From NCBI GenBank assembly GCA_964530625.1, contig CAZHAK010000007.1:21938-85937 (forward strand): a stretch of DNA of 64,000 bases, written 5' to 3'. This document shows positions 4,222 to 64,000 of this stretch, one piece after another. Source of the stretch: an uncultured Alphaproteobacteria bacterium (GTDB lineage Bacteria; Electryoneota; RPQS01). How positions within the stretch are numbered: position 1 is the stretch's first letter; each line of letters opens with the position of its first letter. Under the pieces are notes generated by a model. That model was not told where the DNA came from. It did no database searches and saw only the letters and a program-made list of their open reading frames with translations. Both the position numbers and the translations under genes were made by a program.

Positions 4222-4266
4222 TCAATACCTCCGATTTGTAGTCCGTCCAAGGAATCAGCCCTATTG

Positions 4267-7378: not shown

Positions 7379-7386
7379 ATAAAACT

Positions 7387-45792: not shown

Positions 45793-45808
45793 TTCACCTG
45801 CTCTAAGT

Positions 45809-46644: not shown

Positions 46645-49600
46645 TCAAGGCTGCGGCTCTGCCAATACTTGAAAGAATCCCTTCACCGGGTGAACCGGGC
46701 CAATAAACTGAAAAACTGTAAAGGTGTCCGTCGTTATCACGACGGTCGAGAGAAAACTCCCGCTCATGCTCGAGTCCGTCTTGACTGTAAACAGAGCCGG
46801 AACATTGTAGCTCCAATGCAGCCACACGCTGTCCGAATTCGCGCGAATCATCAAGTCCTCGATCGGCGCAAGCGGTTCGCCAAGCTGCGGACCGTGATAC
46901 CCCTGATCGGGTCTGGATATGTCTGCGATGAAATCGATGCGAGTCGTTCCTTCCGGAGCAATCAACAGCGTGTCCCCGGCATTCACACACGGAGATTGCA
47001 CGCTATCTCCCGTCGAAAGCTGCGCCAAATAGAATCCGTGACCCGATCCGCTCACCCACTGGGGATCCAATTGAATGTTGTAGTAGCGGTCACACGGATC
47101 ACTGTTCGAGTTCAAGCTGTCCAATATGCCAATACTCGCCGGCCCCTGATTAGGGGTGTCCGCAAAGAATGCGAAATTCGCGGAGTCATTCTGCGCCACG
47201 CAATTGTAGCGTACGACAGACGTCGATGTCACGAAGAAAAACATCCCGTCGCCGTGATTCTTGGCGATGATATTGTTCTTCACCTGCGGGGAGCCAAAAC
47301 GAATGTAAACTCCCGCGCCATCCACTCCACTGTTTCCTGAAATCGTGTTGAACTGGAGCGTTGCGCTCGCGCTGCCCACCCATATCGCGCCGCCCGCAGG
47401 TGCGCTGTTATTCAAAAGCAAATTATTCCTGACAAGCGTGGGTGACGTGTCCAAATGAATTCCGCCCCCTGTTGCAGAAGCGGAATTCCCTTCAATCCTG
47501 CTATTCAAAATCTGCCCGGTCGCACTCTTTGCCAAAAGTGCCCCGCCTGCCTTCGCAGATCCGCCTGCCATCACGCAATCGTCAATAATCGGATTGGAGT
47601 TCGTTGCCGCACAAACTATTCCGCCCGAGTCGGCAGAACTGCTTGAGAGAAAACATTCCGTAAATACTGGCGAAGACTGTGTCAGATAAACCGCGCCGCC
47701 CTGCAACGCTTTGTGCCGCGAGATCGAGCAATGAACGAACGACGGTGAAACACCGCTTAGCCAAATCGCTCCGCCCTGTGTCCGTGAAGTTGTCAGGGCC
47801 CACGAGTCACTCCAACCGACATAGTCAAAAGCGCTCGCTCCGGCGCTACCGCTCATGGTAATCCCACGCCAGCGACCCGGATTGCTCACGGTGTCTGTAG
47901 CAAACAAAATAGAATCTGAAACGTTTCCTATCGCAGTTACAACCCCCTTAACATCCATGCCGCATGGACCACAGAACAATAACGTGGTTCCCGCCGCAAT
48001 CGTCAAATCTTCCCCCGTATTCACGACGATATCCGCGAAGACTTTCACGGTATCGGGTCCAAGAGTACCTGATTGCGGTCCGAAAATTCCTACTGGCGAA
48101 ACTCCAAACGCACTCTCAATCGCGCCCATATCCGGCAAGCTTAAGAGTGGCAGAGGTCTATTCTCCCCGACAATGTCTTGTGCCAAGGTGTTCCAATTCC
48201 CCGAACCTATGGCAGAGCTGTTCGCACTCAAACTCCAGTCACCGTTTGCCGTATCAGCAAACATCGGATCTGAAAATACATTCAAGAATGTGTCACAGGA
48301 ATCGCCGTTCATGTTTTGAGCCACCGGAACCCCGATAAACTCAGGACCCTGCGCAGCATCGTTCTCCAAATAACCTATTGTTCCCCTTAAAAGTGAATAC
48401 GCAATCCGCGAATTCTTAGACGCACCAAAATACACATTATTGCTCGTCGACTCCGCGATGATGGAATTCTCAATATCTGCAACGGTGGATTCAAGTCGCA
48501 ACCCGCCATTAATGCTGCCGCCGATCGTGCAATGCCTGAGCGCAATCTTACTGCTATTGGCCGTCGCAAGCCCGCCTCCCAACGCCAACGATTTATTCTT
48601 CGTAATCAGGCAGTTCGTGGCCGAAAGTGTGCTCTGATTCGTCGAAATCCCGCCGCCGTTCAAAGTCGAAGTATTCTTCAATATCTCGCATGAGTTAAAC
48701 ACCGCATCCGCAGTTTCCCACAGATGCACACCGCCGCCCTCGTCACTGGCTTGGTTCCAGCGAACCCGACATCCGTTTAACGTCGGCTGTGATTGTCGAA
48801 TGGAGAGGCCGCCGCCGTTGCCCAGACTTGTGTTGCTGTCAAAATCACAATTTGTAAAGATCGGGTGCGCATTGTTTCGCAAGAACACACCACCTCCGTA
48901 AAGCCCTGCCGTGTTCTGCTTCACCACACAATTATTAAATGTCGGTGCGCCGTCTAACGTGACCCAGATTCCCGCGCCTTCGCCGACGCAGATATTGCCG
49001 CGCACTTCACACTCTTCAAACAGCCCGTTAGAGGTCGCTCGGTAGCTGTGAATCCCTCCGCCGTCATCTGCTGACGTATTCATCAAGACCTTGCACCGCA
49101 GCATATGCGGAGAGGATTCCCAAATGTAAACTCCGCCTCCGTCAAACTCAATAGTGTAGTTCCGCTCGATCAAACAATCGTAAATCAGAGGAGAAGAATT
49201 CTCACAAACAATGCCACCCCCATGACCGCGTCCCTGATTGGCTCGCATCGTCGAACTGTCAATCCGCCCTGTGGAATTTTTAAACACCAACCCTCCGCCG
49301 TTTATTCTTGCAAAATTGCTGTCAAACAAACAATGAGACAGTTGTGGTGAACCTCCGCGCAAATAAGCCCCGCCGCCGCTGCCGGAACTTGCGCTATTTT
49401 TGAAGAATCGCGAATACGTAACCACGCTGCCAATGGTATTATTTAGGAACAGCCCCGCGCCTTCGGCACGAGATACATTCCGTTCAAAGAAGCAGGAATC
49501 CATCCACAGAGTTGAGGATGTCACATACACTGCCCCACCGGCGACTTCCGCGCGATTTCTCCTGAAACTCGTGTGTTCAACTCGCAGAACGGATCCCCCA

Positions 49601-50031
49601 CCAACATAAATTGCTCCACCTAAACTATCCGGACCCGTTGGACCGGGAGCCAGCGAATTCTCAAACACCGCATAGCGCACGAAGCTCGAGTCATTGGCGT
49701 TAATTAAACTCAACCCACGCCACTTGGAAGGATTCAGAAGCGTGTCGGTCGTAAAAACTGCCGAGTCCCCTAGCGTTCCACTCACGGCAAGATAGCCATT
49801 GACAGTCAGCGAAAAAGCGCCCGCAAAATATATTCTGACCCCTGAGCCAACCAGCAGACTATCGCTTGCGGCAACACTGAGATTTCCTTGAACAACATAA
49901 GGACTTCCGGCACTCGTCCAACTTCCGCTGACAGGACCCGACACCACAAAGGTCGTATCCGCCCGCGCAGCCAGCACGCTGACCAAGAAACTCAGCGTCC
50001 AAAAAGTGAATGGTTTACCCGGGAATCTCAT
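46645..50031 (-). CDS. Large secreted right-handed parallel beta-helix repeat protein (pectin-lyase-fold), 1128 aa
   Basis: Signal peptide MRFPGKPFTFWTLSFLVSVLAARA. There are dozens of PbH1-type repeats (NxxxxGGGI/GGAI...N....). The C-terminus is FN3-like. Confidence 0.7.
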   Translation of the reverse strand: MRFPGKPFTFWTLSFLVSVLAARADTTFVVSGPVSGSWTSAGSPYVVQGNLSVAASDSLLVGSGVRIYFAGAFSLTVNGYLAVSGTLGDSAVFTTDTLLNPSKWRGLSLINANDSSFVRYAVFENSLAPGPTGPDSLGGAIYVGGGSVLRVEHTSFRRNRAEVAGGAVYVTSSTLWMDSCFFERNVSRAEGAGLFLNNTIGSVVTYSRFFKNSASSGSGGGAYLRGGSPQLSHCLFDSNFARINGGGLVFKNSTGRIDSSTMRANQGRGHGGGIVCENSSPLIYDCLIERNYTIEFDGGGVYIWESSPHMLRCKVLMNTSADDGGGIHSYRATSNGLFEECEVRGNICVGEGAGIWVTLDGAPTFNNCVVKQNTAGLYGGGVFLRNNAHPIFTNCDFDSNTSLGNGGGLSIRQSQPTLNGCRVRWNQASDEGGGVHLWETADAVFNSCEILKNTSTLNGGGISTNQSTLSATNCLITKNKSLALGGGLATANSSKIALRHCTIGGSINGGLRLESTVADIENSIIAESTSNNVYFGASKNSRIAYSLLRGTIGYLENDAAQGPEFIGVPVAQNMNGDSCDTFLNVFSDPMFADTANGDWSLSANSSAIGSGNWNTLAQDIVGENRPLPLLSLPDMGAIESAFGVSPVGIFGPQSGTLGPDTVKVFADIVVNTGEDLTIAAGTTLLFCGPCGMDVKGVVTAIGNVSDSILFATDTVSNPGRWRGITMSGSAGASAFDYVGWSDSWALTTSRTQGGAIWLSGVSPSFVHCSISRHKALQGGAVYLTQSSPVFTECFLSSSSADSGGIVCAATNSNPIIDDCVMAGGSAKAGGALLAKSATGQILNSRIEGNSASATGGGIHLDTSPTLVRNNLLLNNSAPAGGAIWVGSASATLQFNTISGNSGVDGAGVYIRFGSPQVKNNIIAKNHGDGMFFFVTSTSVVRYNCVAQNDSANFAFFADTPNQGPASIGILDSLNSNSDPCDRYYNIQLDPQWVSGSGHGFYLAQLSTGDSVQSPCVNAGDTLLIAPEGTTRIDFIADISRPDQGYHGPQLGEPLAPIEDLMIRANSDSVWLHWSYNVPALFTVKTDSSMSGSFLSTVVITTDTFTVFQFIGPVHPVKGFFQVLAEPQP

Positions 50032-50517: not shown

Positions 50518-50901
50518 ATGCGATGGATGTTTATGCTTGCAATGGTTTCGATGATTGCGATTTCTGCCTTTGCGGAGGAAGAAAAATCAATCGAGGCATT
50601 GCCCACGGACGCCCAAGTTCTGGATCAACAGATGCGTGATTTGTTGATGGAAAGGGAAGCGGTACTGACCCAAATGGCCGAGGACATGAAGACCGCACCC
50701 TTAGACGAGCGTACAGCACGCGACGCTGAGTACGCGGATATGCAAACTCAATACGAGATTCAATTGCTGGAGATGATGGTCGAGTATTATGAAGTGACTG
50801 GAAATGAGCAATTGCGACTTCGTGCCGAAGCAAACCTTGCACAAATGTTGGCGCCCGCTGCAACAGGAACGCCGGAAGCCGTGAATGGGGAGGGACGCTA
50901 A
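50518..50901 (+). CDS. Small secreted acidic alpha-helical protein of unknown function (paralog of the next gene)
   Basis: ATG at 50518 follows a GAAGGAG ribosome-binding site. Signal peptide MRWMFMLAMVSMIAISAFA. The mature protein is about 108 aa and rich in Glu, Gln and Ala. The C-terminal motif is LEMMVEYYEVTGNEQLRLRAEA. Confidence 0.6.
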   Translation: MRWMFMLAMVSMIAISAFAEEEKSIEALPTDAQVLDQQMRDLLMEREAVLTQMAEDMKTAPLDERTARDAEYADMQTQYEIQLLEMMVEYYEVTGNEQLRLRAEANLAQMLAPAATGTPEAVNGEGR

Positions 50902-50902
50902 A

Positions 50903-51385
50903 ATGAAAAAGATTACTTTGATTATTCTTCTCGCCTTGCCTTTGGCTCTTTGGGCAAATCAACCTGTCCAAAAAGGTGAGCGCTACGACGACGCGGTGAT
51001 CGTAGACAAAGCTCCGACCGGAAGCTCAACCGAAGCTCGTGTTGACGACTTGGCGGGCGAACCAGTCACGACTATTCTGCAGCCCGAGTTTCAAGAGCTT
51101 GAAGACCGCTACGCGGAACAGTTGAACCAACTCCGTGCGCAAATTGAGCTGGCCGCGCCGGATCAGCAGGAAGCACTCGAACTTCAAGCCGTTGCGCTAA
51201 AGCAAGAACTTGAAGGGGCCAGACTTGAAACCGTGTTAAACTATGTTCGCGCACAGGGCAACACTGACGCAGAAAAGCGCGTGCTGGAAGCGATTCACAA
51301 CTATCAGAATCCGACCCCGGTACAGAGAGTGAGCGTTGAACGCGATCCGAAAACCGGTGCTGAGAAGAAGGGAGTTTCGCGATGA
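50903..51385 (+). CDS. Small secreted alpha-helical protein of unknown function (paralog of the previous gene)
   Basis: ATG at 50903 follows GGGAGGG. Signal peptide MKKITLIILLALPLALWA. The C-terminal motif LETVLNYVRAQGNTDAEKRVLEA matches the motif in the upstream protein. Its stop overlaps the next start (ATGA). Confidence 0.6.
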   Translation: MKKITLIILLALPLALWANQPVQKGERYDDAVIVDKAPTGSSTEARVDDLAGEPVTTILQPEFQELEDRYAEQLNQLRAQIELAAPDQQEALELQAVALKQELEGARLETVLNYVRAQGNTDAEKRVLEAIHNYQNPTPVQRVSVERDPKTGAEKKGVSR

Positions 51386-54300
51386 ATAGGCTTTTTCTCT
51401 TTCTAGCGATACTTCTTATCACCGTCAGCGCGAATGCCGCAACTGATTCGCAATCGGAGTTTGTGCGCGATGCTCAAAATGAATGGGTGCCCGAGCCCCC
51501 GACACGAGATTTCTCAAAGCGCATTGTCTTTGACAAATATGTGTGGGAAGAAGGAGTTGACCCCAAAGCACGCTTCCTCAATTTGCTCATGGTGAAGTTC
51601 TTCGATGAAGACACTGTGCGCCTGCGTGACGGCCAGTTGACTTCGTTGACGGGACGCGATATTTCTTTTACGAAATCCTTTCTTGCCCGCCATCCCGAAA
51701 TCTCGCCCCGCGTGATTATATGGAACAAAACTGAAGAAAAATACATGGCAAATCTCGCCCGCATCGAGAAGAAGTCGGGCTGGGATTTGGTTGACCTTTT
51801 CAGCTTCTATTGCTTCGAATTGCCGGAAGCACCCGCTGACGCGCAAGCGTTGATCAGCGAGATTCTCGATGCTCCCGAGGTCGAAACCGCTTATTACGAG
51901 CCGATTCCCGTGGATTTCTTGTGTCAAGATCTCGGGAACACGACACCAAACTTCCGCCCCAACCAAACATATCACGATGCTGCCCCTGTTGGTGTCGACT
52001 TAGATTGGGTGTGGGCAGAACATATTGATGATGTCGTGGACGGACCCGGCACAGGTCGTTGGACTGGAATCTTTGAGCGCGGACTCCAAACCACACACGA
52101 AGACTTCACCTTAGCTGAAGTGGCCACAGCTGGCACGCCTGATTCAGACAACGATCACGGAACGGCTGTGACAGGGTTGCTGGGCGCCTGCGATGATAAT
52201 GGGGTTGGTTGTATTGGTTTTATGGCCGATCAGAGAATGAGGCTCTATCAACGGAATTCAGGCTCTTACGGTTCCACGGCTGATATTTACAATCTAGCCA
52301 ATGGGCAACTGGTTTCTGGTGAAGTCACGAACTCATCATGGGGCTACACGGCAAATCCACTCCCTCCGGGACAAACATGTCCTTGCAATCCAGGTCAAAA
52401 CGGCTCAGTACCCATTGAGTATTCAGCAAGTGTTAAGGCAGAAGTTCAGGCGGGCGTTGCAGATGGTATTCACTACTTTCTGTCCGCAGGGAATGGATGC
52501 ACGAACCTTGATGACGCGACTTTTGGAACAACCTTCAGAAATTCCACAGACACAGGATCAAACTACGTCTCCGCAATCCAGTCTGCGGCTGGCCACAATG
52601 CATCCTGCTTTACGTGCTTTGGCGAGCGCTGTGACCTGAACGCATGGGGCGATGGGAGTTTTACGCTGGGCTATAATTCCGACGGTACTCCGTTTGTACC
52701 GGCATCCCAGGACGAGTGGTACACGAACGGATTCAATGGAACATCGAACGCCTCCCCGACCGTTGCCGGCTGTGCAGGCGTCATTCACAACGTGGTCAAC
52801 TATTATACCGGATCGACGCTGTCCACTTCGTTGATGCGAAACTATCTCAATAACTACGGTACCGCACCAGGCACGACTCCGGGGAATATCGGTGTCATGC
52901 CGAATCTCTTCGGAATCATGTCGGCTAACCTGAATCCCGATTTCCGCACTGGTTGGACCTGGTATATGGTGCCGAGAAGTACAGGAGGTGCGACAGCGGA
53001 CAACTGTCTTATCACCGCGAACTTAAGCCCCGACCCGTCACTTACCTATTGGAATGCCGCTGCGGAGAACGAAGCGGTTATCGGCTGGGGAACTCCGGCG
53101 GCGTACAGAATTTATTTAGACGACGTGTGGGAAATCGGCTGGGTGGACGGAAACGACACTTTGCATGCGCAAGAAAGAACTTACGGCATTAATGCTAGTA
53201 CTACCGTTCGCGGTGGTCGCCACTTTGTTCGCCTGACCGTTGATCCACTTGATCAAGTTGATGAATGGGTTGAAACCGACAATAGCGAACACAATCAATG
53301 GGTCTGGAACCCCCGCCAATTTACGAACGGCCAGATCCTAACCTTGTCTTCGCCTCCGATAAAGTATGCTACAGACCAGCTCTCCGAGGGTTTCTCATAT
53401 CCCAATGTGGATGGCTATGGTGGCGAAAACTTTCAATTCGATGGATACTGGGATATCATGATGGTGATGGCCCAATCTTCAACTGCAGATTACGACGCAC
53501 GTATCTACAGCGAAGATGTCACCTCGACAAACGGATTTGACGACACCGAAGCCTCCTCTGCGTACGTTTCGTTCAGCGATTTCGTAGGCGTCAACAACAA
53601 TGTCGCCGGTCAGTCTCAAGAATTGATTGCCGCTGTGCTTAATTATGACGGTGAATCTTCACAGCATCGTGTGGAGTGCGGAACTTCCACAATCCTTAGC
53701 CCCAGCACGCCCGGCATCGGCCGCACCTCCTATGGCTCGCATAGCTTAACGTCCACGGAGCTCTTTGATGTCTGGGAATTCTATGTTAACGAACTTGTTC
53801 CTTACAACATTGAAGTTGACGTCACCTCCGGAAGCGCAAACGTTGTCGTTTCTATTTACGGACCGGACGACACCTTCTTCAGCAGAGGCAACTTCAATGC
53901 GCAGTCAAACTCCGGCGGTGCGGGCGAAGACGAAATGATCTCCTGCTGGACACCCAACGCCATAGGCTGGCACGCCATCGTCGTGCACAAGCATAACTAC
54001 CTCGATTGGGATGAAACGGCTAACTTCAATCTTTACGTAGGTAAAGCAGGATTTGACTTCGTTCACACTTTAGGTACGGGTTGGTCGCACAGTTTGGTTG
54101 TAAGACAGGTTGCTGGTGGGCAGCCTGCAGTTCTGCCTGCATCTTTGACGGGCAACATTGCGACGAACTATGTCAACATCATGGCTTTGAATCAAGGCTG
54201 TACTGCCGCTGTTGCGTCTTTGGATGACCGCGTCTTTCGTGACGGACCGGCCGTTGGAACCTTTGCCAACTGGAACGGGGCAATTGTGCCGGGAGGCATG

Positions 54301-55569
54301 GCCTTCGGTTCAAATCGCAATATCGGCACTGTCCCCGGTGGCCGTCACCAAATCGGCAACGTCATTGATATTCTTAATGAAGGGCCGGAATGGGACGAAA
54401 CTAACAATCGCTACGACGAACAATTCGTTTGGACGCCTGCTCTGTTGACCAACAATGTGATGTTCAACTCGCTAAACACGGCCCCGAACTGGCGCGATTT
54501 CGATGCAACCTTGTTCTTCCCGGACTACAACGTGGACGGCTTCCGTTTTACAGGCGGTGGATTCTGGAGCGGCGTTGGCATGACTCCCAATAACACCGTT
54601 GAGGACGTATATAACTTATTCCTCTACGACCCGGCAACGTCTTCTACATCCGGGTTCGGAACTCGCTTGGTGAACTCCTGGTCAGCTGGCGCTGACGTCG
54701 AATGGGTCATTGAGAACGGTAGCCAAATCGCCAATGAAACCTTTGATGTCGGCGTTCACAACAACACCGCCTGGCCGAATGACACGTCTCTCTCCACCTA
54801 CCGTCTGCAGCAATCCAACAGAATTCAAGACCTGAATGTTGGACAATTTCACGGCGAATTCCCCTTCCCCAGCACTCAGATTATCAACGTGTTTGATCTC
54901 AATCTGACCTCTGGAGTGAGTACGGATATTCTCTTGGATAACCGTGGAACAGGTGATCTTGGATTTGCAATCTACAATCCGAGCATGCTCTATGGAAGTC
55001 GCACGACGTACACCCAATTGATTAACTTGAATGGCGACGCCGCGGATGAAGCGACAACATTTGTCCCGACTCAAACGGGCCGACATGGATTTGTGGTCTT
55101 TAAGAATGATCGCAGTGATCTGGGAGCAAATCCTTATGCGCTGGTCATCGGTGAACGTACACCAAGAGCACCGGACTCACTGGTCATCAAGTGGGCCTCA
55201 AGCTCTCCGATTTCCGTGGAATTGACGTGGGCGCCTGTGACCCAAGACATTTTCGGGCAACCAATCACGGTCGACCGTTATGACATTTACTTCACGTATA
55301 ACCTTAACGCGCTCTATCCGGCGGGTTGGGGTTTCGGTGGTTCAACCTTAGATAACACGCAAGTGCCGATTTTCCCGAATGATGCGGAGTTCGGCTTCAA
55401 GTGTCTCTTCTTGGCTGTTGACACCGATGGCTTGATCGTCGGAGGATCTGACCTGCCCGAAGGAGCCACGTCGGTCATAGGTCAAAGAGCGGAAGATGTC
55501 CGCAATGCTGCAGGATGGCACGAGAATATTCTTGTCCCACAGTCAGAACGCGTGAATTCGATTCGCTAA
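51382..55569 (+). CDS. Giant secreted kexin/subtilisin-like (S8) protein with three CARDB-like repeat modules and a C-terminal FN3-like domain; Glu sits at the predicted catalytic Asp position
   Basis: Signal peptide MNRLFLFLAILLITVSANA. His motif DNDHGTAVTGLLGA. Oxyanion YFLSAGNGCTN. Ser motif NGTSNASPTVAGCAGV. The Asp-box position reads GTGRWTGIFERG (Glu instead of Asp). Repeats occur at VDEWVETDNSEHNQWVW, LDWDETANFNLYV and GPEWDETNNRYDEQFVW. Confidence 0.65.
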   Translation: MNRLFLFLAILLITVSANAATDSQSEFVRDAQNEWVPEPPTRDFSKRIVFDKYVWEEGVDPKARFLNLLMVKFFDEDTVRLRDGQLTSLTGRDISFTKSFLARHPEISPRVIIWNKTEEKYMANLARIEKKSGWDLVDLFSFYCFELPEAPADAQALISEILDAPEVETAYYEPIPVDFLCQDLGNTTPNFRPNQTYHDAAPVGVDLDWVWAEHIDDVVDGPGTGRWTGIFERGLQTTHEDFTLAEVATAGTPDSDNDHGTAVTGLLGACDDNGVGCIGFMADQRMRLYQRNSGSYGSTADIYNLANGQLVSGEVTNSSWGYTANPLPPGQTCPCNPGQNGSVPIEYSASVKAEVQAGVADGIHYFLSAGNGCTNLDDATFGTTFRNSTDTGSNYVSAIQSAAGHNASCFTCFGERCDLNAWGDGSFTLGYNSDGTPFVPASQDEWYTNGFNGTSNASPTVAGCAGVIHNVVNYYTGSTLSTSLMRNYLNNYGTAPGTTPGNIGVMPNLFGIMSANLNPDFRTGWTWYMVPRSTGGATADNCLITANLSPDPSLTYWNAAAENEAVIGWGTPAAYRIYLDDVWEIGWVDGNDTLHAQERTYGINASTTVRGGRHFVRLTVDPLDQVDEWVETDNSEHNQWVWNPRQFTNGQILTLSSPPIKYATDQLSEGFSYPNVDGYGGENFQFDGYWDIMMVMAQSSTADYDARIYSEDVTSTNGFDDTEASSAYVSFSDFVGVNNNVAGQSQELIAAVLNYDGESSQHRVECGTSTILSPSTPGIGRTSYGSHSLTSTELFDVWEFYVNELVPYNIEVDVTSGSANVVVSIYGPDDTFFSRGNFNAQSNSGGAGEDEMISCWTPNAIGWHAIVVHKHNYLDWDETANFNLYVGKAGFDFVHTLGTGWSHSLVVRQVAGGQPAVLPASLTGNIATNYVNIMALNQGCTAAVASLDDRVFRDGPAVGTFANWNGAIVPGGMAFGSNRNIGTVPGGRHQIGNVIDILNEGPEWDETNNRYDEQFVWTPALLTNNVMFNSLNTAPNWRDFDATLFFPDYNVDGFRFTGGGFWSGVGMTPNNTVEDVYNLFLYDPATSSTSGFGTRLVNSWSAGADVEWVIENGSQIANETFDVGVHNNTAWPNDTSLSTYRLQQSNRIQDLNVGQFHGEFPFPSTQIINVFDLNLTSGVSTDILLDNRGTGDLGFAIYNPSMLYGSRTTYTQLINLNGDAADEATTFVPTQTGRHGFVVFKNDRSDLGANPYALVIGERTPRAPDSLVIKWASSSPISVELTWAPVTQDIFGQPITVDRYDIYFTYNLNALYPAGWGFGGSTLDNTQVPIFPNDAEFGFKCLFLAVDTDGLIVGGSDLPEGATSVIGQRAEDVRNAAGWHENILVPQSERVNSIR

Positions 55570-55591
55570 ACCGTCACTTAATTTGTGATCC

Positions 55592-55627
55592 AAACGAGGC
55601 CCCGCGGGGCCTCGTTTCGTTTTGATT
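55592..55627 (+). terminator. Strong rho-independent terminator after the giant peptidase gene
   Basis: aaacgaggcccc-gc-ggggcctcgttt is a perfect 12-bp stem at 55592-55617, followed by cgttttgatt. Confidence 0.8.
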
Positions 55628-55748
55628 GAGGCACGAAAACTGCACTTGAGGCTATGGGTACGTTACGCAGAGTGAACAAGGAGATTCGCGGCATAGCGTT
55701 TATTATGGTGAAATTCCTCGAAGATCAATTAATCCAACGACTTTACTG

Positions 55749-58700
55749 ATGCTCGACCTGTTTCCGTCACGCTTCACCCTTAGATCAATGTTTCGGACTA
55801 TTTACACGCTCGCAACTCTACTCATCTGCCATTCCAGCCTCTGGGCGGCGAAAGACCTCCCGATGCATGGGTTCCTGGCCTACTGGCCTGCGGCGCTTGG
55901 ATTGATGGCTGCGGTGGGTTTGGCAGGGCTGTGTATCCTGACTTTTCGGAGGGCACGTAAGACCGACGAACACGATCCTGTGCTGGATTGGCGATCCCTT
56001 GCAGAAAACATCGCCGAAGCGGTTATTCTTCTGAAGGCCGATGGAACGGTGCTGTTTGTAAACCGCTGGAGCAGCGACCGTGATGTTATGATCGGTATGC
56101 CCATCGAAGAATTTATTCACGGCGATGATCGAGTTCGTTGGAAAGAGTACTACTTTCTTCGAGCAGGCAGAGCCTCCGTTTGTAAAACTGATGTTTTCAA
56201 AATGACGCTGCCCGAAGCCACCACCGCCTATTGGGAAGTGCGCATTTCGCCGCTCTCTAATGGGCCGCACGGAGCAGATATCATGCTCTGTGCCCGCGAT
56301 GTCACAGATTCCCGTTTGAAAGAAACAACTAAAGACGTTCTCCACAAAGTTACTTTTGCCTCGACTCACGTTGAGTCCTTGGAATCATTTGTCAGATACA
56401 TCGAACTGCAACTTGCCCGATTGGTGGATACAAGTAACTTCTACCTTGCTCTCTACGACAACGAGACTGATACGTACTTGAAATTCCTGTCCAGAGATCG
56501 TTCGGAGCCGCTTACAGCAGAAATCGAGCGGGTGAGCCTCAAGGGAGGATTGACTGACTATGTTCGCAAGACCGGCAAACCGGTGCTGATGAACAATCAC
56601 AATCGAGCGGAATTGATCGCTAATGGCAGCTTGCGAACAATTGGAGAATCCGCCGCTTGCTGGCTCGGGGTGCCCTTGCAAACACGCGATGACGTACTTG
56701 GTGTGCTCGTCGTGCAATCGTATAACAATCTGAATTGCTACACCAACTCTGATGTCGAACTCTTGTCGATCGTCGCGGGTTCGATAGGACGAGCGTTCGA
56801 GCGAAAATCTGCCCAAGCCGAGTTAAAGCAACGGGAAGAAAAACTCAGGCTCTTCACTGAGCGCACGCCCGCGCTGCTCTGGTCACAAGACGAAACAGGG
56901 AGAATTACCTACGCAACCGGTGCGGCGTTGTCAGCGATTGGACTTGGTCCCGACTCACTGGTTGGAAATACTCTTTGCCAGACCGTGCAGTTCAAAGACG
57001 AAGACTTCAGACAACAATTCGAAACGTTGGTGCCGGGCGCACCGCAAAGTTTCCAATTCATATTGCGTGAACGCACCTTTGAGGCATGGATCGAGCGGAC
57101 AAACAGTGCTGATGGAAAATTTGCGGGCATGACCGGCGTAGCGTTGGATGTGACTGAGAAGGACCGCGCGGGGACTGAACTGCGCAGGTTTTTTGAATTG
57201 TCCGGAGACTTGTTTGCCGTTATTGATTTGCAAGGCGTACTTGTACGCTGCAATGATGCGTACTTAAATGCCACAGGATATACGCGTGAGGAGAGAATCG
57301 GTCAGCCATCCCTCACCCTGGTTCATCCTGATGACTTTGCCTTAGCTGAGTGGGCTATGAAAAGACTGTCAGCAGGGGAGCCGGTTATCGGACTCGAAGC
57401 GCGGATTGTGTGCAAAGACGGAGGATGTAAATGGATATCCTGGAGCTCCGTTCTTGATCCGCATGACAACCTGATTTATACTTCAGGTAAAGATGTCACG
57501 AGTCGCCGTGAAATCGAGAATGCGCTTCACGAGCGTGAAGAACAACTTTGCCTCTTTGTCGAAAATTCTCCCGCGGCACTTGCCATGTTTGATCGTGACA
57601 TGAACTATATGATTGTTAGTGAACGATGGCGCACCGATTACAATCTTGGAAGCACTGACTTTGTCGGAAGATCGCATTACGAGGTCTTCCCGGAAATCAG
57701 CGATGAATGGAAAGTGATTCATAAACGTTGCTTAAACGGTGCCACTGAACAATGCTCACGCGATCCCTTCCTGCGGAATGACGGAACAACCGATTGGGTC
57801 CGATGGGAAATTCGCCCTTGGTATCGTGCCGACGGCACTATCGGCGGAATCATGATGTTCACTGAAGTCATCACCGACGAAGTCAATGCAGAGTTGGAAC
57901 TTTCACGTTCCAGAAATCTTGCCCGTCAAATTGTCGAGTCATCGCTCGACTCCGTTATTGCTATTGACGGCAAAGGGAATGTTACCGAGTGGAATCCACA
58001 GGCAGTGAAAGACTTTGGCTACACGCACGACGAAGCGATCGGCAAACCACTGCACGACCTGATTGTCCCCAAACATCTGGCCGAAGCCCACGTTCGAGGC
58101 CTTGAAAAGTACGCGCGTTCGGGTCACGCCCTGATCCTGAATCGTATCCTGAATTTACCCGCGATACGCAAGGGCGGGGAGGAGTTCCCTGTCGAAATTT
58201 CGATCTGTCCCATTCAAGTCGGTGACGAGACTCATTTCTCGGCATTTATCCGCGATATCAGTGAACGGCTTGAAAAGGAAAAAGAACTCACCGAAAGCCG
58301 CGCTCGGCTCAAAGAAGCCCAAAGAATCGCCGGTCTTGGATTCTGGGAATGGTTTGCCGAAAAAGATGAGATGTTTGTCAGCGAAGAGAAACTAACACTC
58401 TACGACAGACCTGATTTGAAACTGCCGATCACCTTTGCGCGGTTTCTTGAGATCGTGCACCCGGATGACCGACAAATGTTCATCGATACCAATCAGGCGC
58501 TCGCGTCAGGGCAGAATTCTTGCGAACTCCAATACAGAATCGTAAGACCGACGGGCGAAATCCGATATGCTTACAGCCAGGGTGAAACCGCACGAGACGA
58601 GCACGGTAACATCCTGAAGCTATTCGGCACCACGCTCGACGTCACAGACAGAGTTCTGAACGAACAAATGCTGCGGGACAGCGAACAGAGACTGGCAATG

Positions 58701-60587
58701 GCGCTCGAAGGTTCAACCGACGGCTTCTGGGATTGGAATATCGTTTCTGGCGATTGCTTTTTTAGCCCAAGAATCGTAGAGTGGCTCGGCTATGACGCAG
58801 GTGAGTTCATTCATAAAATGAGCTTCTGGCAAGAGATTGTTCATCCGGATTCTCTGCCTGTGGTCAATCGCGCTTTTGCTGAACACGTCGCGAGTAGAAC
58901 TGCGCACTATGAAGTCGAAGGACGAATACGCACGAAATCCGGGGAATGGATTTGGGTGTTATCGCGAGGGAAGGTCGTGCTGTGGGATGAACACGGAGCA
59001 CCACTGCGTGCAGCAGGAACATGGACAAACATCACAGACCGAAAAGTTATCGAGGCACGTGCGCTTCAGCTTGGAAGAATTCTGGACAATTCCGTCAATG
59101 AAGTCTACATCGTTGACATAGACTCTCTGAGAATTCTGGAAACCAATCAGAGGGCACGAATCAACACCGGCTACTCGCTCGAAGACTACCAGACTCTGAC
59201 CATTCCACGGCTAACGGCAAATTGGAGAGAAAGCGAACTTCCAAGGCTGCTTCATCCTCTGCTGAACTACAAAATGGAAGTTGTGCGGACAAAGGCCGAT
59301 CATCGCCGAAGTGACGGGACAACGTATCCGTTTGAAGCTACGCTCCAGCTCATGGAATGGCAAGACAAAACTGTGCTTGTCTTCATTGGCTCCGACGCAA
59401 CCGAAAAGGCCAAAGCCGAGCAAAAACTGGAAAGACTGGATGCGCGAATCAGACAAAATCAACGTCTCGAAACGATCGGCACGCTGGCTGGCGGTATCGC
59501 CCACGACTTTAACAATATCCTTACTCCAATACTGGGCTATGCGGATATCGCCGCCAGTGAACTGGATCAAGAATCGACGACGCGAAAAGATCTCGAACAT
59601 GTGATTCAGGCTGCCTACCGGGCCAAAGAGCTCGTCCAGCAAATTCTTGCGTTCAGCACGCAAGGTGACCAAGCTCGCCATCATCTGAAAATCGACCTTG
59701 TCGTAAAGGAAACTCTAAAGTTGTTGCGGGTCGGCATCCCGACAAACATTGATTTAGTCCAAAGCATCGAAAACGTCGGGTATGTTACGTCGGATCCCAG
59801 CATGATCAATCAGATCCTCGTGAATCTCTGCGCCAATGCCGGGCAGGCGATCGGTGAAACCGGCGGTGTCATTGATGTTTCACTCACAAAAGTTGAACTG
59901 AAAGAGTATGACGAACGTGAGCGCCTGAAACTGCCCGAAAGAGCCTACGCAAAACTGTGCGTGCGAGACTCCGGCAAAGGAATGGATGGATACACCATGG
60001 GACGAATGTTTGAACCATTCTTCACAACGGAAGATGTCGGCAAGGGAACTGGACTCGGACTTTCCGTTGTGCATGGCATCGTGAAATCGCACGGAGGGGC
60101 AATAGATGTTGAGTCCGTACCCGATCAAGGTACACGAATTTGCGTCTATCTACCCGTAGAATTCGATGACGACGGCGCAAATCTCCCGCGCACGTTTGAG
60201 GACCCCTCGGGAAGTGAGCACATCCTACTCTGCGATGATGACGATTCTATTCTGATGCTCGGAAAGCAGATGCTTGAGAACTATGGATACTCTGTAACCG
60301 CGACCCAAGACCCTGTCGCAGCTCTGGCCTTGCTGGCGCAAGCAGACCCCCCTGTCGCGGCTATTGTCGTGGATGATCAAATGCCCATCCTCTCAGGCCG
60401 TGATGTCGCATTAGCGGCGCACGATTACAACTCGAGGGTCCCGGTCATCCTGCTGTCTGCGGGGCAAAGCCGTACGGAGAGCGCAGAATGCTTTGCTGCC
60501 GTGCTTTCGAAGCCGGTCGGAGCAGGTGATCTTGCACATTCAGTTAGAAAATGTATTGACGAATCCAAAATGGAGACTGCAACATAA
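55749..60587 (+). CDS. Hybrid sensor histidine kinase: N-terminal TM region, multiple PAS/PAC and GAF domains, HisKA, HATPase_c, and a C-terminal receiver domain
   Basis: Two N-terminal hydrophobic segments. There are many PAS-like repeats over 1612 aa. The HisKA H-box is GGIAHDFNNILTPILGYADI. The ATPase G-boxes are GKGTGLGLSVVHGIV. The receiver region is HILLCDDDDSILML...VVDDQMP...SKPV. Confidence 0.8.
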   Translation: MLDLFPSRFTLRSMFRTIYTLATLLICHSSLWAAKDLPMHGFLAYWPAALGLMAAVGLAGLCILTFRRARKTDEHDPVLDWRSLAENIAEAVILLKADGTVLFVNRWSSDRDVMIGMPIEEFIHGDDRVRWKEYYFLRAGRASVCKTDVFKMTLPEATTAYWEVRISPLSNGPHGADIMLCARDVTDSRLKETTKDVLHKVTFASTHVESLESFVRYIELQLARLVDTSNFYLALYDNETDTYLKFLSRDRSEPLTAEIERVSLKGGLTDYVRKTGKPVLMNNHNRAELIANGSLRTIGESAACWLGVPLQTRDDVLGVLVVQSYNNLNCYTNSDVELLSIVAGSIGRAFERKSAQAELKQREEKLRLFTERTPALLWSQDETGRITYATGAALSAIGLGPDSLVGNTLCQTVQFKDEDFRQQFETLVPGAPQSFQFILRERTFEAWIERTNSADGKFAGMTGVALDVTEKDRAGTELRRFFELSGDLFAVIDLQGVLVRCNDAYLNATGYTREERIGQPSLTLVHPDDFALAEWAMKRLSAGEPVIGLEARIVCKDGGCKWISWSSVLDPHDNLIYTSGKDVTSRREIENALHEREEQLCLFVENSPAALAMFDRDMNYMIVSERWRTDYNLGSTDFVGRSHYEVFPEISDEWKVIHKRCLNGATEQCSRDPFLRNDGTTDWVRWEIRPWYRADGTIGGIMMFTEVITDEVNAELELSRSRNLARQIVESSLDSVIAIDGKGNVTEWNPQAVKDFGYTHDEAIGKPLHDLIVPKHLAEAHVRGLEKYARSGHALILNRILNLPAIRKGGEEFPVEISICPIQVGDETHFSAFIRDISERLEKEKELTESRARLKEAQRIAGLGFWEWFAEKDEMFVSEEKLTLYDRPDLKLPITFARFLEIVHPDDRQMFIDTNQALASGQNSCELQYRIVRPTGEIRYAYSQGETARDEHGNILKLFGTTLDVTDRVLNEQMLRDSEQRLAMALEGSTDGFWDWNIVSGDCFFSPRIVEWLGYDAGEFIHKMSFWQEIVHPDSLPVVNRAFAEHVASRTAHYEVEGRIRTKSGEWIWVLSRGKVVLWDEHGAPLRAAGTWTNITDRKVIEARALQLGRILDNSVNEVYIVDIDSLRILETNQRARINTGYSLEDYQTLTIPRLTANWRESELPRLLHPLLNYKMEVVRTKADHRRSDGTTYPFEATLQLMEWQDKTVLVFIGSDATEKAKAEQKLERLDARIRQNQRLETIGTLAGGIAHDFNNILTPILGYADIAASELDQESTTRKDLEHVIQAAYRAKELVQQILAFSTQGDQARHHLKIDLVVKETLKLLRVGIPTNIDLVQSIENVGYVTSDPSMINQILVNLCANAGQAIGETGGVIDVSLTKVELKEYDERERLKLPERAYAKLCVRDSGKGMDGYTMGRMFEPFFTTEDVGKGTGLGLSVVHGIVKSHGGAIDVESVPDQGTRICVYLPVEFDDDGANLPRTFEDPSGSEHILLCDDDDSILMLGKQMLENYGYSVTATQDPVAALALLAQADPPVAAIVVDDQMPILSGRDVALAAHDYNSRVPVILLSAGQSRTESAECFAAVLSKPVGAGDLAHSVRKCIDESKMETAT

Positions 60588-60964
60588 TGAATCGAATTTT
60601 GGCCATTGACGATGATCCCAACGTTAGACAAATGATCTGCCGGATGCTTGAGCGCAGCGGGTACGATGTCGTGACTGCTGCCAACGGCCGCGAAGGTGTT
60701 GAAAAATTCCGGGCTAATCCACCGGACGTCGTTATCACGGACATCATTATGCCCGAACAGGAAGGCATCGAAACTATCCGGCAACTGAAATCCGAATTCC
60801 CGGATTGCCGCATCATAGCAATCTCTGGAGGCGGACGGGTTGGCCCGGCAGACTACCTGAACATGGCAAAGCTACTCGGAGCCGCTAAAACTATCAGGAA
60901 ACCCTTCGACAGCGCACAGCTTATCTCGGCCATTCGAGAAGTCATGGCAGAGGATGTCGCCTAA
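60587..60964 (+). CDS. Single-domain CheY-like response regulator
   Basis: MNRILAIDDDPNVRQM...VVITDIIMPEQEG...RKPF. The start overlaps the kinase stop (ATGA). Confidence 0.85.
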   Translation: MNRILAIDDDPNVRQMICRMLERSGYDVVTAANGREGVEKFRANPPDVVITDIIMPEQEGIETIRQLKSEFPDCRIIAISGGGRVGPADYLNMAKLLGAAKTIRKPFDSAQLISAIREVMAEDVA

Positions 60965-61098
60965 GCTGCCTCGACCTTATCTTGCTGATTTTAGATGGAC
61001 GTGCCTCGGTGCGAAAAGAGGCATCAATCTGTCTTTTCGCTGCAGAATGCAAGGCAATTCGATCCACTTGCTTAAATTATTGTTATTTCTGACTCTAA

Positions 61099-61324
61099 AA
61101 CAAATGTGACGATTACCGAACCGGTGTGACGATGTTGACGATGATTGCCTCAGCCACGCCTTCGGTTGGCACCGAAGCAGTGACCACGGAGTACACTCTA
61201 AATCAGCAACCCGAACCCGTTTAGCCCGAACGTGAACCTGACCAAAGGTGTGTACTTCACGGTGAAGATCGGCACCGAGTTCACCGCCACGAAGAAGATG
61301 CTGCCGTTAAGCAAGTGCGTGTAA
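61099..61324 (+). pseudogene. Degraded remnant of a T9SS C-terminal sorting domain (frameshifted and internally deleted), with no cargo-protein body
   Basis: Frame 1 (61099-61221) reads ...SATPSVGTEAVTTEYTLNQ. After a +1 shift, 61202-61321 reads ISNPNPFSPNVNLTKGVYFTVKIGTEFTATKKMLPLSKCV*. NPNPFSP and GVYF...TKKM are hallmark CTD motifs, but the roughly 40-aa middle is missing. The piece starts only 135 nt after the upstream gene. Confidence 0.55.
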
Positions 61325-61412
61325 CGCACGTCTTGTGCTGATGCCAACGTAAGATATTGTCCCAAGGACATACAACGGGCCTTCTACACGGGAGGCTCGT
61401 TGCATTATGTAG

Positions 61413-61662
61413 AGGTTTGAAGCAACAACACGCAAAGCAGATGCTCCCATTCATTCTATCCGTCATAAGCCTTTGTCCAAGAGCACACCATGCGGTGTTC
61501 AAATCAATGATCTGGAAATCACAATACTAGTTAGCACCTTGCATGATCGTAGCGGGTCGTCATCTTGTTTCATTTGATGCGCCGGATCTGACCACGGGTC
61601 TGTATTTCTACACGACCAAGATTGATATCGACATTAACGACACAAAGAAAAGCTGCTTTTGA
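61413..61662 (+). pseudogene. Second degraded T9SS C-terminal sorting domain remnant (one frameshift)
   Basis: Frame 0 reads ...HKPLSKSTPCGVQINDLEITILVSTLHD. Frame 1 from 61543 reads MIVAGRHLVSFDAPDLTTGLYFYTTKIDIDINDTKKSCF*. Joined, these resemble a full-length CTD (...V.I.DL.G..V.TL.....AG.H.V.FDA.DL..GLYFY......TKK...). Confidence 0.5.
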
Positions 61663-61854
61663 CGTAAGAACTTTAACTTGTTGTTTTCCTGAGGGTTCTC
61701 AAGTTCCAAATGCCCTCTCTCGGCTCACGTCAACGATACGATTATTTCATTTTTTCTTCCCTATTCCTTGCCTCGCCAAAAAATTGAGTGTAAATTGAGG
61801 GAATACCTCTGTCCCGAGGATTTCTGTTTATATGCAAGATAAAGGTGAATTGAA

Positions 61855-64000
61855 ATGAAACTATGGTCTAAGATTCTGTGCCTGGTTGTTGCCCTGTTCG
61901 CGGTCACCACACTTCACGCTGCCGAGTTCTCGGACATGCTCGAGTTAGAGCTTGAAAAAGCGAAGGGTAGTGACTTCGTCAGCGCAATTATCACGCTGCC
62001 GAGTGCGATTGATATTCGGTCGCTCGACTTTGCGCTTCACACTCGCAAAGCAACCTTGGCGGAACGTCACAGTGAAGTTATTGGCGCGCTGAAATATAAC
62101 GCGTCGCTAAATCAGCCTGCCTATCGCGCCGAACTCGAAGAAGAAATCGAAAAAGGAAATGTCGAAGGCTATACCGCCTACTGGATTGAAAATCTCTTCG
62201 TGATTTCTGCTACAAAAGATTACATTGAGTCGCTGCGCAACCGCGGTGACATCGAGTTTGCCGACGAGAACTTCAAACCCGAGTTGATTGAGCCGATTGT
62301 CTCGTCCTCAGGCGACGAACGTCCGCCGCGAATAAATCCGCTCGACAACGAAACCACCACAGCCGGTCAAAATGCCATCGGTGCAACCCGCGTCAATCGC
62401 GAACTTGGCATTACGGGTCAAGGCGTGCTTGTAGCAAACTGTGACACCGGAGTTGACGGCAATCATCCTGCGCTCGCTTCGCGCTGGAGAGGAAACTTTG
62501 CGCCTGCGGCAGAATGCTGGCGCGACGCTCTCGGATCTGCACCCAACTTCCCCTCGGATGGAAACAATCACGGCACGCACGTCATGGGTACGATTACGGG
62601 CCGCGCGATCTCCGGCAATGACACCAATACTGTGGGTAGTGCGCCCAACGCGCTGTGGATTGCGACCAACTCAATCAATCAGGGCGTCGGTGCCGCATTC
62701 GATAACGACATCATCGCCGACTACCAGTGGTTTGCAGATCCCGACGGCGACGTCCAAACCTTGGATGATGTCCCGGATTGCATTCAGAATTCGTGGGGAG
62801 TTCATTCTGGCTTTAGCGGGTACATTCAATGCGACAGCCGCTGGAACACCGTAATTCTAAACTGTGAAGCGGCTGGTCCCGTGATCTCATGGTCAGCCGG
62901 TAACGAATCTGGCTCCGGCCATCGAGCGCCCGCGATCTTTTCCATAAATGCTTACCAAATCTTCTCTGTGGGCGCGGTGGACGCACAAGATGGCTTGCCG
63001 CCCTATCCGATTGCAAGTTTTTCGAGCCTTGGACCCACACCTTGTGCTCCCTTTGTTCCTGACAACATTAAGCCAGAAATTTCCGCGCCCGGTGTGAATG
63101 TCTATTCGTCCGTCCCCGGTGGCGGCTATAGTAGTTCCTATTCCGGCACCTCTATGGCAGGACCGCATGTTGCAGGCGTCGTCGCGTTGATGCGCGAAGC
63201 CTGTCCCGATTGCGATCACATCACGATCAAGGATGCGATCATGCAAACCGCGCTTGACCAAGGTCCGGCAGGGCAGGACAATACATACGGCTATGGCGTG
63301 ATCCAAGCCTATGAAGCCGTCATCGCTGTCTCCGCACTCGGCCGCGTAGCTGGTGTCGTTACGGACGGAGTTGATCCTATTAACGGTGCGCGCGTGAAAA
63401 TTCTTTCCGGACCAAACCAAGTTTACACTGATGCTGGTGGTCTGTATTACCTCGCCTTATCTGACGGAACCTACGACCTTGAGTTTTCGAAAGTCGGTTT
63501 CATTTCTGACACAACGTATGGCGTGGTCGTGACCGTTGGAGATACCGTCTTTGTCAATGCTGAACTCACTGCGCTGACACCAGTCGTTTTCGTGAACGAA
63601 GATTTCGAAGCCGGCGCTCCCGGTTGGACACACGATGCTCCCGGCGGCTGGGTAGATAATTGGCACATCTCGACAGAGCGCGCAAACTCCGGTACACATT
63701 CGTACAAGTGCGGCGACGAGGGAGTGGGAACATATGCAAGTTTCGATGACGCTCGCTTGACGTCCCCTGTTTTGTCAAACATCCCTGCTTCGGCTTATCT
63801 GAATTTCGATCTCCAGATCGAATCCGAACTTTCGGGAGCTTTCCCGGATTCAGCTTATGACGGCGGATTCATAGAGCTCTCCGTTGATGCAGGCCCGTGG
63901 ACCCACGTTTCCCCGCTGCAAGGCTACACCAAAACCTTCCGATACTCTGCAGGTGGAGGAAATCCCTATACCGGGCCGGTTCCGGGGGTTGCGTGTTTTG
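61855..64000 (+). CDS. Secreted propeptide-S8 subtilisin-like peptidase, the third paralog (3' end beyond the window)
   Basis: ATG at 61855 follows AAAGGTG. Signal peptide MKLWSKILCLVVALFAVTTLHA. The propeptide GYTAYWIENLFVISA is shared with its paralogs. Motifs: VLVANCDTGVDGNH, HGTHVMGTITG, GTSMAGPHVAGVVALM. There is no stop before 64000. Confidence 0.85.
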   Translation, partial: MKLWSKILCLVVALFAVTTLHAAEFSDMLELELEKAKGSDFVSAIITLPSAIDIRSLDFALHTRKATLAERHSEVIGALKYNASLNQPAYRAELEEEIEKGNVEGYTAYWIENLFVISATKDYIESLRNRGDIEFADENFKPELIEPIVSSSGDERPPRINPLDNETTTAGQNAIGATRVNRELGITGQGVLVANCDTGVDGNHPALASRWRGNFAPAAECWRDALGSAPNFPSDGNNHGTHVMGTITGRAISGNDTNTVGSAPNALWIATNSINQGVGAAFDNDIIADYQWFADPDGDVQTLDDVPDCIQNSWGVHSGFSGYIQCDSRWNTVILNCEAAGPVISWSAGNESGSGHRAPAIFSINAYQIFSVGAVDAQDGLPPYPIASFSSLGPTPCAPFVPDNIKPEISAPGVNVYSSVPGGGYSSSYSGTSMAGPHVAGVVALMREACPDCDHITIKDAIMQTALDQGPAGQDNTYGYGVIQAYEAVIAVSALGRVAGVVTDGVDPINGARVKILSGPNQVYTDAGGLYYLALSDGTYDLEFSKVGFISDTTYGVVVTVGDTVFVNAELTALTPVVFVNEDFEAGAPGWTHDAPGGWVDNWHISTERANSGTHSYKCGDEGVGTYASFDDARLTSPVLSNIPASAYLNFDLQIESELSGAFPDSAYDGGFIELSVDAGPWTHVSPLQGYTKTFRYSAGGGNPYTGPVPGVACF

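Follow-up and report, generated by a model that had tools for sequence, protein, structure and literature searches.

Probable relics of two adjacent type IX secretion system cargo genes between a response regulator and an S8 peptidase gene in an uncultured bacterium

The window analysed here, a stretch of 64,000 nucleotides (nt) from contig CAZHAK010000007.1 of an uncultured bacterium (assembly GCA_964530625.1), holds a gap of 890 nt (60965-61854) between a response regulator (RR) gene (60587-60964) on the left and the ATG of an S8 peptidase gene (61855) on the right, with a G+C content of about 47% compared with a window mean of about 52%. Translation of the three plus-strand frames revealed two plus-strand remnants of type IX secretion system (T9SS) C-terminal sorting domains (CTDs) inside this gap, confirming an earlier description of two CTD-like pieces made from the letters alone (hereafter the sequence-only reading), since the same strings were obtained. 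The remnants are named psi-g1 and psi-g2 after g1 and g2, the two genes of related genomes whose 3' ends they match. The parts of the gap are listed below, where z compares local alignment scores with those of shuffled sequences and HMM stands for profile hidden Markov model.

60965-61143, plus strand: RR-proximal spacer, without detectable homology to the RR-g1 spacer or g1 body of relatives
61144-61314, plus strand: psi-g1 (remnant 1), made up of the g1 linker and the two ends (start and tail) of the g1 CTD, with the 3' flank continuing to 61402
61144-61240, plus strand: 5' piece of psi-g1, with the last part of the pre-CTD linker ('ASATPSV..AV.TEY.L.Q') and, as the start of the CTD, NPNPFSPNVNL
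61229-61243, plus strand: junction of an internal deletion in psi-g1, an in-frame loss of about 32-42 codons (CTD core beta-strands)
61235-61314, plus strand: CTD tail of psi-g1, 'NLTKGVYF-TVKIGTEFTATKKML' against the invariant 'NLTSGLYFYTVKIGNEFTATKKMLLVK*'
61315-61402, plus strand: retained 3' flank of g1, including a relic of the g1 intrinsic terminator hairpin (61373-61402)
61403-61551, plus strand: filler, z about 0 against g1/g2 of three relatives and no match to the family HMM
61552-61667, plus strand: psi-g2 (remnant 2), the last 39 codons of the g2 CTD, 'AGRHLVSFDAPDLTTGLYFYTTKIDIDINDTKK(M)LLLT*'
61668-61854, plus strand: g2-S8 spacer, in which the g2 terminator stem is deleted and the T-tract CTTGTTGTTTTCC (61677-61689) alone is left of the terminator

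The first frame of remnant 1 (61144-61206) reads '..IASATPSVGTEAVTTEYTLNQ', or '..MIASATPSVGTEAVTTEYTLNQ' in a longer reading up to 61206, and after a 2-nt loss the sequence continues as 'NPNPFSPNVNLTKGVYFTVKIGTEFTATKKML' (61208-61303), staying open to a stop as 'NPNPFSPNVNLTKGVYFTVKIGTEFTATKKMLPLSKCV*' (61208-61324). Remnant 2 reads 'VAGRHLVSFDAPDLTTGLYFYTTKIDIDINDTKK' (61552-61650) and its raw frame '..VAGRHLVSFDAPDLTTGLYFYTTKIDIDINDTKKSCF*' (61549-61662), while restoring one base in the A-run at about 61651 gives the end '..TKKMLLLT*' with a stop at 61665-61667. Three of the four peptide pieces of the sequence-only reading were borne out, and the fourth, 'GVQINDLEITILVSTLHD' (61488-61541), found no support: z is about 0 against g1 and g2 DNA, the family HMM does not match it, and all that speaks for it is a gain of about 4 bits with the lineage HMM and a weak match to a single foreign CTD. 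The filler in which this piece lies (61403-61551) may, though not demonstrably, hold strongly decayed sequence from the middle of the g2 CTD, starting at about 61516 ('EITILVSTLHD' compared with 'EVATLVNGTMA'). A candidate third remnant near 61435 ('KQMLPF', a repeat) was ruled out, with an HMM score of about 0 and no DNA homology.

With E values up to 10 allowed, no match to PF18962, PF13860 or TIGR04183 was obtained for the raw or the frame-repaired peptides, and the check by TIGR04183/Por_Secre_tail models suggested along with the sequence-only reading was therefore negative for both remnants. We consider this result underpowered in this lineage rather than refuting, because the sole intact CTD in the window, that of a 1133-aa S8 protease (820-4221, minus strand), is itself sub-threshold (25.9 bits on PF18962, with a cut-off of 27 bits). 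This protease is also the one indirect sign that the organism may possess the T9SS machinery. Two profiles of our own were run over all 2608 six-frame segments of the whole window, a lineage profile from 16 CTDs related to the intact CTD and a family profile from the last 105 aa of 120 g1/g2-family proteins, with the following scores.

Lineage profile: intact CTD, 119.8 bits; 61531-61659, 16.7 bits, E 7.7e-4; 61202-61321, 8.6 bits in two collinear pieces
Family profile: intact CTD, 63 bits; 61531-61659, 38.8 bits, E 1.1e-10; 61202-61321, 28.0 bits, E 2.5e-7; 61099-61221, 11.3 bits; rest of the window, at most about 5 bits

Remnant 1 covers positions 2-21 and 64-87 of the lineage HMM and misses about 42 positions between them (22-63), in agreement with the earlier remark that the central part of about 40 aa is lacking from the first piece. 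Smith-Waterman z values of the remnants against shuffled sequences range from 11 to 20. The remnants fall short of the gathering scores of PF18962 and TIGR04183, and their homology to bona fide CTDs is supported by the family HMM, tblastn and DNA identity. Neither of them forms a complete beta-sandwich of about 80-90 aa at the end of an open reading frame (ORF) with signal peptide and cargo, and no homology to a gene body or signal peptide was detected upstream of them, as had also been noticed from the sequence alone.

The lack of Pfam and NCBIfam matches to the raw or frame-repaired peptides would be in line with a chance resemblance, but this explanation, like that of an assembly chimera, has next to no probability when confronted with the E values of 1e-10 and 2.5e-7 in the family HMM, with DNA matches that attain E 1.7e-22 and z up to 20 and reach into non-coding flanks, and with the identical sequence in independent assemblies from different samples. 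The RR protein was recorded in 42 collection blocks and 24 contigs were read, among which four loci from different samples (Logan SRR18162977, SRR14117728 and SRR34646263; JGI 3300009868) were 100% identical over 13.4 kb, whole gap included, and the artefact of assembly that had been raised as a caveat is excluded by these four independent assemblies. Comparison of positions 50587-64000 of the window with contigs L001-L004 showed zero differences over 13.4 kb in four samples, which suggests that the population of the source organism is very clonal and widely distributed.

Relatives of the locus were found with the downstream S8 protein (839 aa; 3' end from L001) as query against collections of genomes and metagenomes, and they are uncultured organisms, some labelled Calditrichaeota, with many of the metagenome-assembled genomes unlabelled or mislabelled. 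The gene order HK-RR-g1-g2-S8-GH172, where HK is a histidine kinase, was observed in three lineages and four contigs (L090, L163 and L164/L165), all with intact orthologues at the syntenic position of the remnants, and Sulf_transp comes next in L164/L165, as in the window. The contigs and the RR-to-S8 distances are as follows.

L090 (JGI Ga0268298_10000110): HK 2-2545, RR 2575-2946, g1 3238-4557, g2 to 5777, S8 6001-9660, GH172 on the minus strand; RR-to-S8 distance about 3050 nt
L163 (GCA_016712825.1): RR-to-S8 distance 3312 nt
L164/L165 (JGI 3300056825 and 3300056789): RR-to-S8 distance 3424 nt in L164
Window: RR-to-S8 distance 890 nt
L005: RR-to-S8 distance 394 nt
L007: RR-to-S8 distance 155 nt

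The last two contigs keep HK-RR-S8 without g1/g2, and the search for remnants in their gaps found none, with a probable S8 promoter block (described below) alone in common. Genome and metagenome scans for closer relatives retrieved none above about 73% S8 identity, and an exact-match look-up gave identical copies alone. In L090, g1 encodes 438 aa and g2 347 aa (about 350-460 aa across relatives), both on the plus strand and with a full CTD at the end. They are tandem paralogues, about 35% identical in the body, and both combine a T9SS type-A CTD with a signal peptide and an uncharacterised N-terminal domain, to which g1 adds an Fn3-like module. Their CTDs score 38.5 and 39.1 bits on PF18962, above the cut-off of 27, and their family comprises 4636 database proteins at E <=1e-5, typically of 440-460 aa and annotated just as 'T9SS type A sorting domain-containing protein'.

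The gap aligns piecewise, and in the same order, to the 3' ends of g1 and g2 and to their non-coding flanks. For the 5' piece of psi-g1 (61144-61240), DNA alignment gave z values of 16.0 against L164 (9030-9122), 14.0 against L163 and 11.4 against L090, and the piece was matched by tblastn of g1 residues 346-374 and by positions 4-25 and 27-36 of the family HMM. Its frame is shifted by the loss of 2 nt at about 61207 in 'CAG AAC TAC CCG', which turns QNYPNPF into Q-NPNPF. The junction of the internal deletion, placed by alignment to g1 of L090 (4339-4482) with exact breakpoints that are ambiguous, falls at an AACCTG(AC) motif ('NL(T)') that occurs two or three times in intact g1, and this repetition suggests that the loss of the core codons may have been mediated by microhomology.

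The tail of psi-g1 (61235-61314) is 87% identical in blastn to L090 4474-4557 (E 1.7e-22) and 85% to L163, and in tblastn 'NLTKGVYF-TVKIGTEFTATKKML' shows 83% protein identity over 24 aa to 'NLTSGLYFYTVKIGNEFTATKKML' of g1 in L090. In this tail three residues are replaced (S to K, L to V and N to T), a Tyr codon is deleted, one nucleotide is missing at about 61304, and CAA stands in place of the TAA stop of g1 (61312-61314). The amino acids hit by these replacements are identical in 7 of the 8 intact g1/g2 tails compared, and nearly every one of the 22 family proteins read has the same 24-codon tail at the amino-acid level, although their bodies are just 45-80% identical, so that the changes point qualitatively, and in a small sample, to relaxed selection. 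Codons of the psi-g1 tail are the same in 15-18 of 19 positions, depending on the intact g1-type tail used as comparator.

Similarly, psi-g2 DNA gave z values of 20.2 against L090 (5661-5777), 14.5 against L163 and 11.4 against L164, all alignments stopping at the g2 stop, and tblastn of 'AGRHLVSFDAPDLTTGLYFYTTKIDIDINDTKK' with 'AGRHTVSFDAANLTSGLYFYTVKIGNEFTATKK' gave 63-64% identity over 33-35 aa (E about 1e-11). A 1-nt deletion affects the Met codon at about 61651/61652, many residues are replaced, and the original TAA stop is kept (61665-61667). Apart from the 87% of the g1 tail, the blastn identity of remnant DNA to L090 is 72-75%. A recent tandem duplication of one remnant from the other was considered and rejected, as their mutual DNA score of 50 (z about 9) is not above the scores of 42-49 to CTDs of other genomes; the similarity between the two remnants is, judging from these comparisons, that of the paralogues g1 and g2.

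With homology, synteny, disrupting lesions and identity across independent assemblies all observed, the gap very probably consists of non-functional relics of two adjacent T9SS cargo genes, g1 and g2, lost by ordinary deletional gene decay. The lesions inactivate both genes: their bodies are deleted, and the remaining sequence has lost 2 nt at one site, 1 nt at each of two others and one whole codon, besides showing the TAA-to-CAA change. The sequence-only reading had already regarded the pieces as fossils of T9SS cargo genes whose bodies were deleted, and the intact g1-g2 pair between RR and S8 in L090, L163 and L164/L165, with 3' ends that the remnants match, strongly agrees with it. Its proposal that insertion of the kinase/regulator module displaced the genes does not hold, because each of the three syntenic lineages has HK-RR directly upstream of an intact g1-g2 pair, and HK-RR-S8 is also found in L005/L007. 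No other part of g1/g2 comes near the CTD in conservation, which is why the remnants can still be recognised. Moreover, the presence of intact genes in three lineages, of relics in the window and the clean absence in L005/L007 indicate that g1/g2 would be dispensable and repeatedly lost.

From an ancestral order HK-RR-g1-g2-S8-GH172, the window lineage would have undergone several independent deletions, followed by small indels that broke the remaining sequence. One deletion would have removed at least about 1 kb of the g1 body, another, at a short direct repeat within the g1 CTD, about 100-125 nt, another about 1.3 kb with the promoter and body of g2, and yet another about 35 nt with the g2 terminator stem, so that the RR-to-S8 distance would have shrunk from about 3.1-3.4 kb to 890 nt. 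We infer both the order and the mechanism of these events, namely deletional bias of the ordinary kind, with one junction showing microhomology, and the remnants would presently be neutral DNA.

Some observations weigh against this decay reading. The DNA of the g1-tail remnant is 85-93% identical to relatives, compared with 65-73% for flanking functional genes, which would not be expected of old neutral DNA; this high similarity probably stems from the exceptional CTD conservation in intact genes together with a fairly recent inactivation, and a relatively recent event, rather than ancient debris, is also indicated because the codons of the remnant tail still largely match those of intact tails. 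The relatives found do not exceed about 70-80% protein identity, and they give no brackets for when and in what order the deletions took place. The filler (61403-61551) and the RR-proximal spacer (60965-61143) have no assignment to any ancestral part: the g1/g2 bodies, signal peptides and RR-g1 spacer were sought in both and none was found (z about 0; tblastn), and Smith-Waterman alignment of 60965-61143 to L164, L163 and L090 gave z of about 0. Finally, the g1 terminator hairpin still folds strongly, and that piece might conceivably have a residual function.

This hairpin lies in the retained flank of g1, for which local alignment of 61315-61402 to L164 (9333-9418) gave z of 19.8 and blastn of 61235-61402 to L164 (9249-9418) gave 80% identity over 172 nt. 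Alignment shows that the hairpin is kept with compensatory changes in L164, L163, L090 and L166. The 3' end of g1 could have been retained for function, with the terminator at 61373-61402 shielding S8 from HK-RR read-through and the CTD remnant hitch-hiking with it. The window hairpin folds at -22.8 kcal/mol (z -6.4; 0 of 200 shuffles fold as well), weaker than the value of about -30 kcal/mol in relatives, all three stem substitutions are C-to-T changes that leave G.U pairs, and the left breakpoint of the large g2 deletion coincides exactly with the end of the stem, at 61402. However, the T-tract after the stem is lost, three of three C-to-T changes are not statistically significant, g2 has had its own terminator stem deleted, and no such terminator relic exists in L005 and L007. 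Besides, RR has its own terminator-like hairpin in the RR-proximal spacer (61008-61025), followed by TCTGTCTTTTCG with a T-run to 61036. A retained terminator is thus an unlikely explanation compared with decay of the two genes.

In the spacer between g2 and S8, no stable fold was found at 61655-61705, and alignment of 61678-61849 to the corresponding spacer of L090 (5826-5995) gave z of 14.8, including an 18-nt match at 61678-61695. A conserved block, ATTCCTTGCCTCGCCAAAAAATTGAGTGTAAATTGAGGGAATACCTCTGT (61753-61821, core 61763-61812), was also observed about 45-90 nt upstream of the S8 start, in surroundings that have diverged. It is common to the window, L005, L090, L163 and L164, and is probably the promoter or an operator of S8. 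An Rfam scan of the gap gave just a chance-level snoRNA match (E 0.76), and a scan of the gap for promoter and terminator consensus sites found a number not above that of shuffled sequences.

The intact genes of the relatives show further peculiarities at their 3' ends. The C-terminal halves of the g1 and g2 CTDs are near-identical within a genome in L090 (4420-4557 and 5640-5777) and L163 (9180-9317 and 10620-10760), with codon identity of 0.89-0.90 compared with 0.34-0.40 in the bodies, a pattern not seen in L164 and one that, from the sequences compared, indicates gene-conversion tracts. Additionally, g1-type CTDs hardly vary between genomes over their last 24 or so codons, synonymous sites included, with 17-23 of 23 codons identical among L090 (4474-4557), L163 (9234-9317), L164 (9249-9332), L166 (9249-9332) and L083 (658-741), while flanking genes use the same codon at just 39-47% of conserved residues and the whole CTD shows a milder excess. 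A nucleotide-level role behind the synonymous-site conservation of the CTD was considered and set aside, the rise being modest (0.68-0.79 compared with 0.55-0.62 in the g1 body, for distant pairs) and in keeping with selection on the codons of highly constrained residues together with gene conversion on a local scale.

Both patterns could be taken to favour orphan CTD pieces acting as silent recombination cassettes, that is, donors or acceptors for gene conversion with the CTD tails of intact cargo genes elsewhere, as in the recombinogenic cassette that the sequence-only reading offered as an alternative. This is highly improbable for the window, since the remnants have private frameshifts and replacements that are absent from all intact family members examined, changes at invariant residues and a deleted core, and they are single-copy at ancestral gene positions instead of forming an array. 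In the search for a donor, the one other CTD in the window (820-4221) proved to be of a different, distant subtype, no partner locus is known, and no g1-type partner CTD was found in the window and the L001 flank, the part of the genome covered. Silent cassettes such as pilS of Neisseria and vls of Borrelia, which serve antigenic variation, are multi-copy and in-frame conversion donors. The window resembles them in having promoterless partial gene copies near expressed genes, but its two single relics are frameshifted and stand at ancestral positions, and the combination of several in-frame copies, an expression locus and conversion tracts is not found. A further reading, in which the g1-type CTD tail and its terminator form a 3' module conserved at the nucleotide level and preferentially retained after gene loss as a terminator/insulator or conversion template, appears decidedly doubtful; if true, orphan CTD pieces would represent a recurrent functional class rather than debris.

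Gene decay, by comparison, is an already known process that accounts for the remnants, which require no concept of an orphan cassette. Bacterial pseudogene remnants arise by deletional bias under the general model of genome decay reported, for example, by Mira, Ochman and Moran (2001). The locus shares with such pseudogenes the intact orthologues in place in relatives, the independent deletions and small indels, the shrinking spacer and the full loss in sister lineages; nothing essential differs, although the pieces surviving in the window belong to the most conserved gene part and are thus unusually recognisable. Like T9SS type-A CTDs (PF18962/TIGR04183), the remnants keep the PNPF start and the G-x-Y-F...KK-hydrophobic end, but they have no ORF, signal peptide or cargo, and the core strands are gone from remnant 1 and the N-terminal half from remnant 2. 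As predicted from these losses they cannot work as sorting signals, and they are classed as relics of CTD-bearing genes and not as CTDs.

No description of orphan CTD cassettes was found in the literature, the nearest parallel being the KLIKK protease clusters of Tannerella forsythia, in which clustered T9SS cargo genes have near-identical CTDs and differing cargo and are absent from a close relative (PMC4404884). The homogenised g1/g2 CTD tails and the lineage-specific loss are parallel to this case, but the KLIKK genes are intact and encode expressed proteases (PMC4404884), whereas the cargo of g1/g2 is of unknown function and relics alone are present in the window.

The gap is best annotated as two pseudogene fragments, and its importance is small past correct annotation. 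Nonetheless, it is a worked example of how synteny and a family-specific profile resolve CTDs that are lineage-specific or degraded and can escape the curated models, and it puts on record that the HK-RR-g1-g2-S8-GH172 neighbourhood is conserved in an uncultured lineage labelled Calditrichota. In public assemblies, gene callers place here a 57-aa ORF on the minus strand (61198-61371) and a 39-aa ORF on the plus strand (61543-61662). Both overlap with the CTD relics and can almost certainly be dismissed as artefacts of the decayed locus. Short ORFs of 105-170 aa with little besides a complete CTD were also observed on long contigs of other genomes (P0002, P0013; L031 2558-2938), and some of them may be similar relics or have mis-called starts, a possible systematic annotation issue.

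The HK-RR module has a variable region on its left, where the gene upstream of HK differs among the genomes. In the window this gene (51382-55569) encodes a 1395-aa S8-like protein without CTD, while L005 (1-4206) and L163 (1-2311) have a large CTD-bearing protein and L164 a beta-helix protein on the minus strand.

Four secreted proteins of the window without Por CTD (two S8 peptidases, an M14 carboxypeptidase and a beta-helix protein) end in a common Fn3-like module of about 70 aa, and their genes are located as follows.

40487-43234, minus strand: protein with the Fn3-like module
43264-45840, minus strand: protein with the Fn3-like module
46645-50031, minus strand: protein with the Fn3-like module
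61855 onward, plus strand: protein with the Fn3-like module, complete in L001 (11269-13788)

This module ('..DLTI......L.W......NY.VW....YY.VVA..*') shows about 25% pairwise identity and no match in Pfam or NCBIfam, and it may represent a lineage-specific C-terminal anchoring or sorting module.

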